Positions 1-8,741 of a stretch of 10,490 nucleotides of DNA are shown here, piece by piece. A program made the translations under genes and the position numbers. The notes below the pieces were generated by a model that was given only the letters and a program-made list of their open reading frames with translations, was not told the origin of the DNA and made no database searches. Source of the DNA: a virus; UHGV virus genome UHGV-0050635; one strand, 5' to 3'. The stretch's first letter is position 1. Each line of letters opens with the position of its first letter.

Positions 1-611
1 TTTTCAAGGATCGAAACTTCTGGGTTTTCGTCATATTTATTGTGGGGACGTGGTCTTTCTATAACATTTTTGATCAACAACTTTTTCCTGTCTTTTATGC
101 AGGTTTATTCGAATCACACGATGTAGGAACGCGCCTGTATGGTTATCTCAACTCATTCCAGGTGGTACTCGAAGCGCTGTGCATGGCGATTATTCCTTTC
201 TTTGTGAATCGGGTAGGGCCAAAAAATGCATTACTTATCGGAGTTGTGATTATGGCGTTGCGTATCCTTTCCTGCGCGCTGTTCGTTAACCCCTGGATTA
301 TTTCATTAGTGAAGTTGTTACATGCCATTGAGGTTCCACTTTGTGTCATATCCGTCTTCAAATACAGCGTGGCAAACTTTGATAAGCGCCTGTCGTCGAC
401 GATCTTTCTGATTGGTTTTCAAATTGCCAGTTCGCTTGGGATTGTGCTGCTTTCAACGCCGACTGGGATACTCTTTGACCACGCAGGCTACCAGACAGTT
501 TTCTTCGCAATTTCGGGTATTGTCTGCCTGATGTTGCTATTTGGCATTTTCTTCTTGAGTAAAAAACGCGAGCAAATAGTTATGGAAACGCCTGTACCTT
601 CAGCAATATAG
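1..611 (+). CDS. MFS transporter, LacY/oligosaccharide:H+ symporter family, C-terminal fragment (5' end lies outside the window; frame is open from nt 3, stop TAG 609-611)
   Basis: Reading frame is open from the window edge to 611. Translation aligns by eye with the LacY C-terminal half (GTR.YGY...NR.G.KNALL...KYS/ITS.F..R.S.TI.L motifs) and contains multiple hydrophobic helices. Probable host flank gene. Confidence 0.8.
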   Translation, partial: FKDRNFWVFVIFIVGTWSFYNIFDQQLFPVFYAGLFESHDVGTRLYGYLNSFQVVLEALCMAIIPFFVNRVGPKNALLIGVVIMALRILSCALFVNPWIISLVKLLHAIEVPLCVISVFKYSVANFDKRLSSTIFLIGFQIASSLGIVLLSTPTGILFDHAGYQTVFFAISGIVCLMLLFGIFFLSKKREQIVMETPVPSAI

Positions 612-622
612 ACGTAAACTTT

Positions 623-662
623 TTCCGGTTGTTGTCGATAGCTCTATATCCCTCAACCGGAA
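623..662 (+). terminator. Inverted repeat just downstream of the transporter stop (ttccggttg ... caaccggaa, 9-bp stem, ~22-nt loop); weak terminator or recombination-site candidate
   Basis: Perfect 9-bp inverted repeat seen in sequence at 623-631 / 654-662. No strong U-tract follows, so terminator function is uncertain. Confidence 0.3.
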
Positions 663-1140
663 AATAATAATAGTAAAATGCTTAGCCCTGCTAATAATCG
701 CCTAATCCAAACGCCTCATTCATGTTCTGGTACAGTCGCTCAAATGTACTTCAGATGCGCGGTTCGCTGATTTCCAGGACATTGTCGTCATTCAGTGACC
801 TGTCCCGTGTATCACGGTCCTGCGAATTCATCAAGGAATGCATTGCGGAGTGAAGTATCGAGTCACGCCATATTTCGCTATCAGGATTCTGTGTGATGGT
901 TACATCGCCCGGCCCAGGGCTGTTTAGTCATCAGCGCTTTCTGACAGTGCTGAGATTTCAACCTGTTGCAGTAAAAATGAGTAGATATAAGGCAAGTGTG
1001 CTGCCAAACCCATCTTTTACGGGGTGAAGGTAGATTTCGTTTGAAGGGTATCTGGTGTCCCCTGCAGACATCTACTTGGCGCGGCAGGGGATTGATTGGA
1101 ATGATGTTTTTTAGATGTGAAAAATATTTTACCCGCTATT

Positions 1141-1341
1141 TTACCCATTGGCGCGGCTTAAGAGCTTATTTTTGAATTCACAATGGTCACGATATAACCA
1201 TCTTGCTCGTCCGTGGATAACTTTGGCTTTTGGCAGGTCGCCGGACTTAATCCGGTCGTAGATGAAGGTTTTACCGAAGCCAGTATCGGCCATGATGAAT
1301 TTCAAATCAACCAGTGAATCAGGCTGTAGTTCGTGTTGCAT
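1141..1341 (-). CDS. AlpA/Xis-family small DNA-binding protein (putative excisionase or prophage regulatory protein)
   Basis: 66-aa ORF with ATG at 1341 and a GGAGA motif 8 nt upstream. The translation LVDLKFIMADTGFGKTFIYDRIKSGDLPKAKVIHGRARW matches the AlpA/phage-excisionase HTH signature (TG.S.STIY ... G.FP.P.K.G.RA..W). Confidence 0.7.
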   Translation of the reverse strand: MQHELQPDSLVDLKFIMADTGFGKTFIYDRIKSGDLPKAKVIHGRARWLYRDHCEFKNKLLSRANG

Positions 1342-1383
1342 GAGTGCTATCTCCGAATAGGGAATCGAACCTGCAAATCAGGT

Positions 1384-1407
1384 AATAAAAAAACCGCATT
1401 GATGCGG
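1384..1407 (-). terminator. Rho-independent terminator on the - strand between the upstream 114-aa gene and the xis-like gene
   Basis: On the - strand, hairpin ccgca-ttga-tgcgg is followed by TTTTTTTTATT. Confidence 0.6.
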
Positions 1408-1435
1408 CGATGGTAGGTCTGGATATCTTGATAAA

Positions 1436-7523: not shown

Positions 7524-7578
7524 ATCTCACCTCAAATAAGTGGTTTGCTGCGAAAAAGTAAAACAATGATATTCACTT

Positions 7579-7845
7579 CTATTTGTCATCGTGTAAGTGA
7601 CGCAGGTTATTAACTCGCGGCCAGTAATATTTTGGCTTGGCACGAGATCCGGGTCTTGGACCTACGCAAACTATATAGCTCTCTTCTTTCCTCGGAAGGC
7701 CAGGTGCATCTAGCAGACGGCCTAGTTCGAATTTTTTTACGTTGACACCAGGAGGAATCACCTCGACGATAAACCCGATTTTTACCTTCGTTACACCGTT
7801 TGATGAGCTTGACCATTTAACTTCATCGTTCAATTTGAACTTCAT
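7579..7845 (-). CDS. Hypothetical protein (88 aa; alternative ATG at 7848)
   Basis: Tandem ATG codons at 7848 and 7845 with GAGG just upstream. Located directly after the N-remnant stop, i.e. in the position of the first gene downstream of N. Confidence 0.65.
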   Translation of the reverse strand: MKFKLNDEVKWSSSSNGVTKVKIGFIVEVIPPGVNVKKFELGRLLDAPGLPRKEESYIVCVGPRPGSRAKPKYYWPRVNNLRHLHDDK

Positions 7846-7853
7846 CATTAACC

Positions 7854-7960: not shown

Positions 7961-7985
7961 CAATAAAAAACCCACCGAAGTGGGC
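7961..7985 (-). terminator. Rho-independent terminator on the - strand immediately after nun
   Basis: On the - strand, stem cccac-ttcg-gtggg is followed by TTTTTTATTG. Confidence 0.65.
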
Positions 7986-8314
7986 TATGACCATTTTTTA
8001 TTTGGATTTCGTTGGTGAGCGTGATTAACAACTCTGTGCATTACATCCTCATATTTTTCATCTTCAATTTTTTCGACATCGCGAGGAAATGGTGTTGCTA
8101 ATGCTTTGTCAACTTTATCCATTGGGTCTTCATTAATCTTATATTCAGGACCGTCATCTATAGCATTAAATCCAGGTGTTACACCGTTTTTTAATGCATA
8201 TGCTATCCTCTTTTCCCATCTCGCTATTCTCCTCCTGTCTCGAGATGTAAGACCTCTATCAGATACTTTTCTGTTTTGTCCGCGGTCAGGATTAACATAA
8301 ATAGTCTTTTTCAC
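7985..8314 (-). CDS. nun: Nun-like transcription termination / phage-exclusion protein (HK022 Nun type), about 109 aa
   Basis: Contains the arginine-rich motif DRGLTSRDRRRIARWEKRIAYALK and the C-terminus ...NPNKKWS with the penultimate Trp characteristic of HK022 Nun. Start is uncertain: GTG 8314, ATG 8317 or ATG 8323. Confidence 0.8.
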   Translation of the reverse strand: MKKTIYVNPDRGQNRKVSDRGLTSRDRRRIARWEKRIAYALKNGVTPGFNAIDDGPEYKINEDPMDKVDKALATPFPRDVEKIEDEKYEDVMHRVVNHAHQRNPNKKWS

Positions 8315-8325
8315 CATAAGCATAC

Positions 8326-8631
8326 TCAATAAGCACCGTACGGTAGTTTACTGTACAATTTTATTTTTTGGACTGCATGTATTTTGTTTCCTAATGGGTT
8401 TGAATCTTTGTAATAAATACTTCTATTTTTTCGAACGACTTCTTCTTTCTTCTTGCAGCAAAGGATTCCTAGTGATGCTGCTTTGTCTGCTTTGACGCAA
8501 CCAGAGAGCTTTAGCGCAATTTTTCGCGCCAGTGCTTCATTACTGCGTCGCTCGGCAATAAGTTCTGCTCTGCGAGCTTTGTAGCGGCTTTTTGCCGTAC
8601 CTTTGGATTCTTTCCAGACAATGGTTACCAT
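8326..8631 (-). CDS. N: N-like transcription antiterminator, phage-21-type arginine-rich motif (101 aa)
   Basis: ATG at 8631 with AAGGAG 6 nt upstream. The N-terminal GTAKSRYKARRAELIAERR is the phage 21 N ARM as I recall it. The C-terminal region resembles N-family tails. A cognate nutL lies upstream. Confidence 0.8.
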   Translation of the reverse strand: MVTIVWKESKGTAKSRYKARRAELIAERRSNEALARKIALKLSGCVKADKAASLGILCCKKKEEVVRKNRSIYYKDSNPLGNKIHAVQKIKLYSKLPYGAY

Positions 8632-8741
8632 GATGGTCTCCTTTAAGTGGCTTTGGCGCATGACGCGTCGAGGTGCTTATCTTCTCGATCGCTGTCTTGC
8701 AGCTGCAATTCGCGCCATCCCCAAAACCACTCAAGTTCTGG

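Follow-up and report, generated by a model that had tools for sequence, protein, structure and literature searches.

A prophage excisionase gene that borders host DNA with no integrase beside it raises the question of whether the integrase was lost or lies elsewhere. We addressed this question for a 10,490 nt stretch of the virus genome UHGV-0050635 (in the following called the window), in which a small xis-like gene on the reverse strand faces the end of a host transporter gene across a non-coding gap.

The gap extends over exactly 529 bp (612–1140), from the stop codon of the left gene (611) to that of the xis-like gene (1141). This agrees with the first-pass annotation, which had described about 530 bp free of ORFs of 60 aa or more next to a LacY-family host gene, an assignment borne out by Pfam (LacY_symp, E=6.8e-93). 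The host gene is the 3′ part of cscB, which in related strains belongs to the chromosomal sucrose cluster cscR-cscA-cscK-cscB and is annotated there as “oligosaccharide MFS transporter”. An ORF scan yielded no ORF of at least 60 aa in 612–1140 on either strand, and the longest ORFs overlapping the gap have 59, 44, 43 and 43 aa. The lack of a 60-aa ORF across 529 bp carries no statistical weight. To look for integrases, we used tblastn with five tyrosine integrases as queries, IntS of K-12, IntS of MEI008, a P4-like and a lambda-like integrase, and one integrated at sbcB. None matched within 612–1140, in line with the missing integrase noted in the first-pass annotation, and across the entire 10.5-kb window no integrase-like coding sequence was found, the best E-value of 0.33 being noise. 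ARAGORN predicted no tRNA gene in the window; the 15-nt argW fragment described below is too short for this tool.

The 529 bp fall into a host segment and the phage side of an attR site, which have different histories. Read from cscB, 441 bp of host DNA are followed by a 15-bp core, a phage arm of 73 bp and then the stop codon of the xis-like gene torI. It is very likely that the gap is host DNA plus attR and that this prophage uses the recombination module of KplE1/CPS-53, HK620, Sf6 and Kapi1, in which int belongs at the other prophage end.

Table 1 Features of the attR region and its flanks, in coordinates of the window.
Position	Strand	Feature	Evidence
1..611	+	cscB 3′ end (sucrose permease, LacY family; host, left flank)	Pfam LacY_symp, E=6.8e-93
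612..1052	.	Host DNA from the end of cscB to the argW attachment site (B arm of attR), not phage	Genome matches, empty site, alignment
621..664	.	Perfect 11-bp-stem hairpin directly 3′ of the cscB stop codon	Arms 621-631/654-664, 22 nt between
700..986	-	Decayed internal DUF4942 fragment (about residues 38-151 of a 280-aa protein) with in-frame stop and frameshift	tblastn, Pfam
1017..1148	-	43-aa chimeric ORF	Compared translations; coding status doubtful
1053..1067	-	attR core, second copy of the 3′-terminal 15 nt of tRNA-Arg(CCU) argW (CTGCAGGGGACACCA)	Exact match
1058..1091	.	8-bp inverted repeat TCCCCTGC / GCAGGGGA, 18-nt spacer	Arms 1058-1065/1084-1091
1068..1164	-	Phage arm (P arm) of attR, overlapping the last 24 nt of torI	Similarity to K-12 attR and HK620/Sf6 attP
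1085..1097	-	IHF-like site AATCAATCCCCTG, one mismatch to WATCAANNNNTTR	Motif scan
1125..1147	-	Two tandem copies of the direct repeat TATTTTACCC (GGGTAAAATA when read on the torI strand) that overlap the torI stop codon	Equals HK620 “repeat_region attP” 1441-1463
1141..1341	-	torI, excisionase / recombination directionality factor of the KplE1/HK620/Sf6 module	66/66 residues identical to PDB 1Z4H
1342..1397	-	torI upstream region, phage-side end of the shared recombination module	HK620/Sf6 similarity stops at 1397
1393..1408	-	Terminator-like hairpin (GCCGCATCAATGCGGT plus T-run) between ORF114 and torI, at a mosaic boundary	Terminator scan

The host–phage junction

The 15-mer forming the 3′ end of argW (as reverse complement, CTGCAGGGGACACCA) is present as a single exact copy in the window, at 1053–1067, against a chance expectation of 0.01. 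In K-12, the same 15-nt remnant of argW is annotated as pawZ. We aligned four types of attachment site: attR from the window, attB, attP from HK620/Sf6 and attL from MEI008. The window reads as the left half of attB joined to the right half of the HK620/Sf6 attP, and the MEI008 attL as the left half of attP joined to the right half of attB; the sole block common to all four sites is TGGTGTCCCCTGCAG. Strand exchange took place in this core.

The end-points of database matches lead to the same junction, where the core joins host attB to phage attP, which is the structure of an attR. From the phage side, all 17 matching free-phage records (HK620, Sf6, Kapi1, HK633, IME10, HZ41 and others) show similarity only from position 1053 rightward, at 96.6–97.6% identity. 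Two further records in the free-phage list are prophage-derived with host flank and were kept outside of the 17. In a prophage from a genome with another host flank, similarity to the window starts at 1056. From the host side, segment 612–1067 is found in about 2,600 of the 5,426 complete E. coli genomes, where the match mostly ends at 1067 and a tRNA-Arg is often annotated at that position; in a listing spread across these matches, about 6 of the 40 matches listed continued through the P arm.

The first-pass annotation had pointed to the uninterrupted locus in related strains as the place where the prophage boundaries could be defined. An empty attB is present in the prophage-free strain FDAARGOS_433, in the order cscB-441 bp-argW-yfdC, which puts the boundary in the window at 1053–1067 and assigns 612–1052 to the host. 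The prophage boundary in the window is thereby placed to the base. Because 612–1052 is conserved host DNA that abuts an intact argW in prophage-free strains, the gap is not the product of a prophage deletion, as had been considered. The first reading had also listed an att remnant among its options. An att site, with core and P arm, indeed lies within the gap, but it is an apparently intact attR and not a remnant.

The core published for KplE1 is CTGCAGGGGACACCAT (PMC2951348). Fifteen of its 16 bases match exactly at 1053–1067, corresponding to the 3′ end of argW, and the 16th base is host-derived. The block of identity with the csc-type attB therefore comprises 15 bp compared with the published 16–17 bp, because the base following the CCA end of argW differs in csc-type strains: the flank in the window is the csc cluster, that in K-12 is dsdC.

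The torI gene and the phage arm of attR

The product of the xis-like gene is identical in 66 of 66 residues to the “Tor inhibition protein” TorI of E. coli K-12 (PDB 1Z4H), and its counterpart in related genomes carries the annotation torI. TorI is an excision factor and an inhibitor of the TorR response regulator (PMC3509656, PMC2951348). A TorI-type recombination directionality factor gene is thus present at this prophage end. The gene had been labeled “Xis/AlpA-like”. The first half of this label is functionally correct because TorI is an experimentally established excision factor; the second half found no counterpart in Pfam, where Phage_AlpA gave no match to TorI at E≤0.01 and the sole match to an excisionase-type helix-turn-helix domain, HTH_17, stayed below threshold (16.9 bits vs a cut-off of 27).

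Upstream of torI, the “phage integration” promoter and cII site annotated in HK620 (1664–1702) correspond to window positions 1348–1386. Similarity to HK620 and Sf6 stops at 1397, and a terminator-like hairpin lies at this boundary. Other prophages share the early genes from 1388, 1435 or 1816 on, with different int/xis pairs at other sites; L015 and L018, for example, possess the same early genes together with a lambda-type Exc+Int pair at another site, torS. Ten contigs encoding an identical 223-aa protein were all different mosaics, and the highest coverage of the window among the 5,426 complete genomes was 67%. The recombination module is a separable cassette. Beyond it, PHROG matches delineated an ordinary lambdoid early-left operon plus immunity region in the 9.4 kb of prophage contained in the window, with ORF114, a dATP/dGTP pyrophosphohydrolase-like protein, Ea22-like, Abc2, SSB, an Erf/Rad52-type annealing protein, cIII, Ral, an N-like antiterminator, a Nun-like ORF, CI, Cro and CII.

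The P arm is homologous to experimentally used attR and attP sites including the arm repeats. It is 100% identical to MEI008 and 96–97% identical to the K-12 attR and the HK620/Sf6 attP, and the distance of 73 nt from the torI stop codon to the core, like the sequence itself, is as in the K-12 attR. Five substitutions set it apart from HK620, Sf6 and K-12 (positions 1079, 1080, 1083, 1104 and 1121), all of which spare the core, the arm repeats and the IHF-like site. We set the right limit of the P arm at 1164, where the 135-bp attR substrate of the published in-vitro assays ends (PMC3509656). Judged by homology, the functional attR would extend from about 1030 to 1164, because primer attR-IHF2, which bounds this 135-bp substrate, matches exactly at 1145–1164 (PMC3509656).

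Binding sites on attR were assigned solely by homology (the HK620 annotation) and motif. The tandem repeats at 1125–1147 include a TAAA motif, a reported feature of the IntS arm-type (P′) sites on attL (PMC2951348), and are probably the arm-type sites of attR for IntS. A candidate IHF site is placed at 1085–1097 by its motif; published excision assays used IHF with attL and attR substrates (PMC2951348, PMC3509656). The TorI site motifs GTTCG, GATCG and GTCCG were absent from 1040–1170, which agrees with a published map that locates all five TorI sites on attL (PMC2951348).

The core is also spanned by a short ORF on the torI strand. Its first 32 codons equal those of the ORF annotated as hkaB in HK620 and as gene 17 in Sf6, both of which span the attP core, and after the core it continues into host sequence.

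From these elements, the following course of events can be proposed. Since the order in the free phage is torI-attP-intS, integration via the 15–16-bp core at the 3′ end of argW would split the module. The gene intS with its own promoter would then lie in attL beside argW, tens of kb away, and torI would remain beside attR, adjoining whatever is located downstream of argW, here cscB. IntS expression is low and autoregulated from a promoter inside attL (PMC2951348), and TorI, which binds attL, is needed to steer recombination toward excision (PMC2951348, PMC3509656). In published assays with K-12 and HK620 substrates, IntS, TorI and IHF recombined attL with attR into attP and attB (PMC2951348, PMC3509656). 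As known for K-12 and HK620, TorI made upon induction would also here bind the five attL sites and form an excisive intasome with IntS and IHF, in which attL and attR are brought into synapsis. Strand exchange in the core of this copy would release a circle with torI-attP-intS and restore cscB-441 bp-argW. This sequence of events would involve no loss of DNA from the gap.

The closest described system is KplE1 (CPS-53) of K-12, with an identical TorI, the same core, spacing and argW site, and a P arm that is 96% identical. There, attR lies beside dsdC and intS-attL beside argW (PMC2951348, PMC3509656), so that the host flank past the core is dsdC in K-12 but the csc sucrose cluster in the window. 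The prophages differ further, as KplE1 is a 10-kb remnant without repressor, whereas the prophage in the window is lambdoid, with N, CI/Cro/CII, Erf, SSB and Abc2. The P22-like phages HK620, Sf6 and Kapi1 (Lederbergvirus) are 96.9–97.6% identical to the window at the DNA level from the core through torI to 1397, and the attP core and arm repeat annotated in HK620 coincide with 1053–1067 and 1125–1147. In these phages the site is a free-phage attP with int across the core, in the window host DNA lies there instead, and beyond 1397 the mosaic of early genes differs from that of HK620 and Sf6. With lambda, the module shares a small winged-helix excision factor, a heterobivalent tyrosine integrase, IHF and arm-type sites, and the early-left operon in the window is lambdoid. 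In lambda, however, attP lies beyond int, leaving xis and int together at one prophage end, whereas attP lies between the two genes in the torI module, in which intS also has its own autoregulated promoter within attL (PMC2951348).

Position of the integrase and other readings of the gap

The first-pass annotation had applied the lambda rule, according to which the integrase adjoins xis near attL, and had read the lack of an integrase as a sign of a deleted or grounded prophage or a deletion scar. This rule is inapplicable here: the annotations of HK620 and Sf6 show int on one side of the attP core and the torI homolog (hkaC and gene 18, respectively) on the other. Because attP lies between them, int and xis come to lie at opposite ends of the prophage, as also stated for Kapi1 (bioRxiv 10.1101/2021.11.03.467220). 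Instead of the integrase next to the excisionase that characterizes a lambda-type prophage end, the window has an att core 73 nt from the torI stop codon.

Looking at complete chromosomes, K-12 has the order argW-intS … torI-pawZ-dsdC, and the relative ACN001 the order cscB-gap-torI … intS-argW-yfdC. In the relative MEI008, which is 100% identical to the window over 612–1345, about 45 kb separate torI from intS and argW. In both ACN001 and MEI008, prophages of 42–45 kb carry an intact intS beside argW, followed by yfdC, at the far end. These two close relatives speak against a deleted integrase, a grounded prophage or a deletion scar as the reason for the arrangement. The torI-attR junction is a published, already known architecture, for which a deletion is unnecessary as an explanation, and no open biological questions become testable through this finding. 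Its use lies in annotation. Where attP separates xis from int, an excisionase gene without an adjoining integrase does not indicate a crippled prophage, and the halves of the IntS/TorI module are found in roughly one quarter to one third of complete E. coli genomes. In addition, DNA to the left of 1053–1067 can be treated as host DNA from the variable argW-csc/dsd hotspot.

Among the other readings, the one that fares best holds that the far-end integrase or attL has been deleted or inactivated, leaving torI and attR as an orphan half of the module. It is compatible with the gap being attR and concerns only DNA outside of the window, which ends in the cII/replication region, short of attL at the far prophage end. 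Decay is common at this locus: ACN001 has a truncated portal gene, KplE1 of K-12 is a 10-kb remnant, and the enterotoxigenic strain ETEC L7_E1373 keeps just an N-terminal stub of intS beside an IS200/IS605 element. Against such a grounded state, both relatives checked from end to end retain an intact intS beside argW, and even the K-12 remnant retains intS and excises (PMC2951348). Moreover, intS is commoner than torI. Among the 5,426 complete genomes we found torI with its arm in 1,405 and intS with its arm (at least 80% coverage) in 1,864; these counts, which are totals and not per-genome co-occurrences, show no sign of torI being usually orphaned. The 9.4 kb of prophage in the window, with the ordinary early-left operon and the CI/Cro/CII region assigned by PHROG, argue in the same direction. 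We therefore regard a grounded prophage as unlikely.

Another reading is that the 441 bp of 612–1052 encode an uncharacterized non-coding RNA or regulatory element. The segment is 91–100% identical across about 2,600 genomes, and it contains a strong hairpin at 621–664 and, at 1005–991 on the minus strand, a weak terminator-like site. The hairpin corresponds to an inverted repeat first reported at 623–662; it exists and is perfect over 11 bp, with arms extending beyond the positions given then (Table 1). Its folding energy of −17.3 kcal/mol (z=−3.07 vs shuffles) exceeds chance. It was missed by the terminator scan and is not a canonical intrinsic terminator, because on both strands a U-run precedes it and an A-run follows it. 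The two good terminator-like sites found in 500–1500 are both located upstream of torI, outside of the gap, and promoter-like sites in this region occurred only at the level of shuffled sequence. A search of Rfam 15 yielded no match, neither in the whole window at gathering thresholds nor in 560–1420 at E≤1, leaving the sRNA proposed for the gap unsupported. Furthermore, about two-thirds of the segment consist of a frameshifted, stop-bearing DUF4942 fragment (see below), recent common descent within E. coli accounts for conservation at this level, and K-12-type strains lack the segment altogether. An RNA or regulatory element here is thus very improbable.

The second inverted repeat noticed at first, at 1060–1089 with a 16-nt spacer, also exists, with revised coordinates (1058–1065/1084–1091) and a spacer of 18 nt. 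This 8-bp dyad connects the core, in which one arm lies, with the P arm, which contains the other. Neither arm is changed in K-12, HK620 and Sf6, whose spacers differ at 1079, 1080 and 1083. An 8-bp inverted repeat has an estimated chance expectation of about 0.6 in a region of this size, and the folds on the two strands are unexceptional (z=−1.1 and −1.8 vs shuffles). With folding no better than shuffles on either strand, a structure linking core and P arm was dropped as a candidate. That the dyad is a functional IntS or transcript-end element is less likely than the island scenario given below.

The weakest reading, an integrase once located between torI and cscB and since lost or decayed past recognition, draws on the lambda analogy alone and has next to no probability, since tblastn with the five integrases found nothing in 612–1140, the DNA is colinear base for base with the empty-site host DNA to 1067 and the free-phage attP from 1053, and the torI-to-core spacing is the one found in the K-12 attR, which is experimentally active; at the sequence level, the attB/attP/attL/attR alignment refutes it.

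The host segment between cscB and argW

Within the host part of the gap, whose 91–100% identity among genomes is given above, we detected the remains of a gene. By tblastn, residues 76–151 of a full-length DUF4942 protein from strain C9 matched 700–927 with 51% identity, E=7e-19 and one in-frame stop, and a colinear weak match placed residues 38–65 at 903–986 in another frame (E=0.047). The Pfam model DUF4942 (PF13708) gave E=1.9e-5 and 24.8 bits, just under the cut-off of 25. Full-length E. coli DUF4942 genes share 73–76% DNA identity with the fragment, and PGAP annotated a DUF4942 pseudogene at this spot in related genomes. No intact DUF4942 ORF exists at 700–986, only an internal piece of about 95–115 codons with a stop and a frameshift.

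In strain C9, the DUF4942 gene is the last gene of an island of the CP4-44/CP4-57 type that adjoins a tRNA-Ser gene and encodes Ag43, antirestriction, RadC-like and CbtA/YeeU proteins, among others. The piece at 700–986 is a relic and no gene, and it probably derives from an older CP4-type island.

The argW-dsdCXA/csc site is a recombination hotspot that is often targeted by lambdoid phages, with prophage “Argw*W” in E. coli W as an example of an occupant (PMC11251922, PMC3032704). The passages on this locus in these two sources, citing Jahreis 2002 and Moritz & Welch 2006, place the csc cluster next to argW, where it replaces dsdC and part of dsdX. We found no substantive difference between the described hotspot and the locus in the window. 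Directly past the argW core, K-12-type chromosomes differ from csc-type ones, and the former are without the 612–1052 segment. Within the hotspot literature covered, we found no description of a DUF4942 relic between cscB and argW.

These comparisons suggest that the host segment may be debris of an earlier island. The 441 bp might be the stump of a CP4-type island once inserted at argW, in which case csc would have reached E. coli, or become fixed beside argW, by serial integration and decay of islands at this tRNA gene, with the prophage as the latest occupant. We hold this scenario only tentatively. No second copy of the argW core that could bound an older island was found in 42 kb of the relative ACN001, and the orientation of the relic relative to argW, compared with the intact C9 island, does not fit a simple model. 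A decayed version of the locus is seen in ETEC L7_E1373, in which cscB is followed by 79 bp and then by the IS200/IS605 element, with the intS stub beside argW.

A decayed gene and the attachment core beside cscB

The 441-bp host segment separating cscB from the argW attachment core (window 612-1052) contains a decayed internal piece of a DUF4942 gene, which spans about residues 38-151 of 280 and carries both an in-frame stop and a frameshift. Such genes typically stand last in islands of the CP4-44/CP4-57 type; the argW tRNA site beside the csc cluster was therefore probably occupied earlier by an older element.

Features in the host segment, across the attachment core and in the early region (window coordinates)
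Feature	Position	Strand	Remark
DUF4942 gene, decayed internal piece	700-986	minus	between cscB and argW att core
43-aa ORF	1017-1148	minus	integration-split form of HK620 hkaB / Sf6 gene 17
68-aa ORF, ATG start	7610-7816	minus	between Ral gene and Nun-like ORF
Nun-like ORF	7985-8329	minus	PHROG match
N-like antiterminator gene	8326-8661	minus	

In the csc-type hosts, the base following the CCA end of argW is unlike the phage base (window 1052-1053, four-way alignment A2 of attR, attB, attP and attL), and the block of identity between attB and attP is therefore 15 bp long here. Lengths of 16 bp for K-12 and 17 bp for Kapi1 are given in the literature. The 43-aa ORF lies across this core. Its counterparts in the related free phages, HK620 hkaB and Sf6 gene 17, are small ORFs spanning attP; the first 32 residues agree with them and host-encoded residues follow directly after the core. 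It is doubtful that this ORF is coding.

Only the last 611 nt of cscB lie inside the window, and these read open. Among the csc-type strains compared, the gene is intact in MEI008 and CRE51, and has an internal stop and a pseudogene annotation in ACN001 and FDAARGOS_433 (L001, 19364-20611, and L003, 1753-3000; L numbers denote the related E. coli loci compared).

Other occupants and remnants at argW

The integrase gene intS with its arm was found in 1,864 complete E. coli genomes versus 1,405 for the excisionase gene torI with its arm. O157:H7 strains carry intS, and, among the matches listed, further O157:H7 records match the host segment without a torI feature. Host-segment matches in the O157:H7 identity class end at position 1067 in a spread sample of the matches listed. 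Together, these observations suggest that, in some argW prophages, the right end that goes with IntS is a different one or has been lost.

The locus in ETEC L7_E1373 (NZ_LR882990.1; L020, 4001-6359) really is a grounded remnant. There, an IS200/IS605 element (tnpB/tnpA) sits 79 bp after cscB, intS is reduced to an N-terminal stub adjoining argW, and torI, attR and the host segment past position 690 are all lost. In GCA_964257835.1 (L014, 11857-13511), argW looks to be occupied in tandem: a P4-like integrase gene lies within about 180 bp beyond torI and the att core, and belongs to a different island with PapB, an IS element and HsdR-like genes downstream. Superficially, this arrangement resembles an excisionase gene next to its integrase gene.

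Mosaic boundary and early genes

A terminator-like hairpin marks a sharp mosaic boundary at window 1388-1408, just upstream of torI. The early-left genes of this prophage (ORF114, theta-like, 223-aa pyrophosphohydrolase) recur in other E. coli (L011, L013, L015, L018), where they adjoin three different int/xis modules at sites other than argW: beside sbcB and, with a lambda-type Exc+Int, beside torS.

The 68-aa ORF had no PHROG match at E<=1e-5, and the DNA around it (about 7565-7850) is covered by none of the related loci compared. The ORF immediately downstream of the N-like antiterminator gene matches a Nun-like transcription termination factor (PHROG 5632, E=4.8e-71). The presence of both N-like and HK022 Nun-like genes in a single prophage is unusual.
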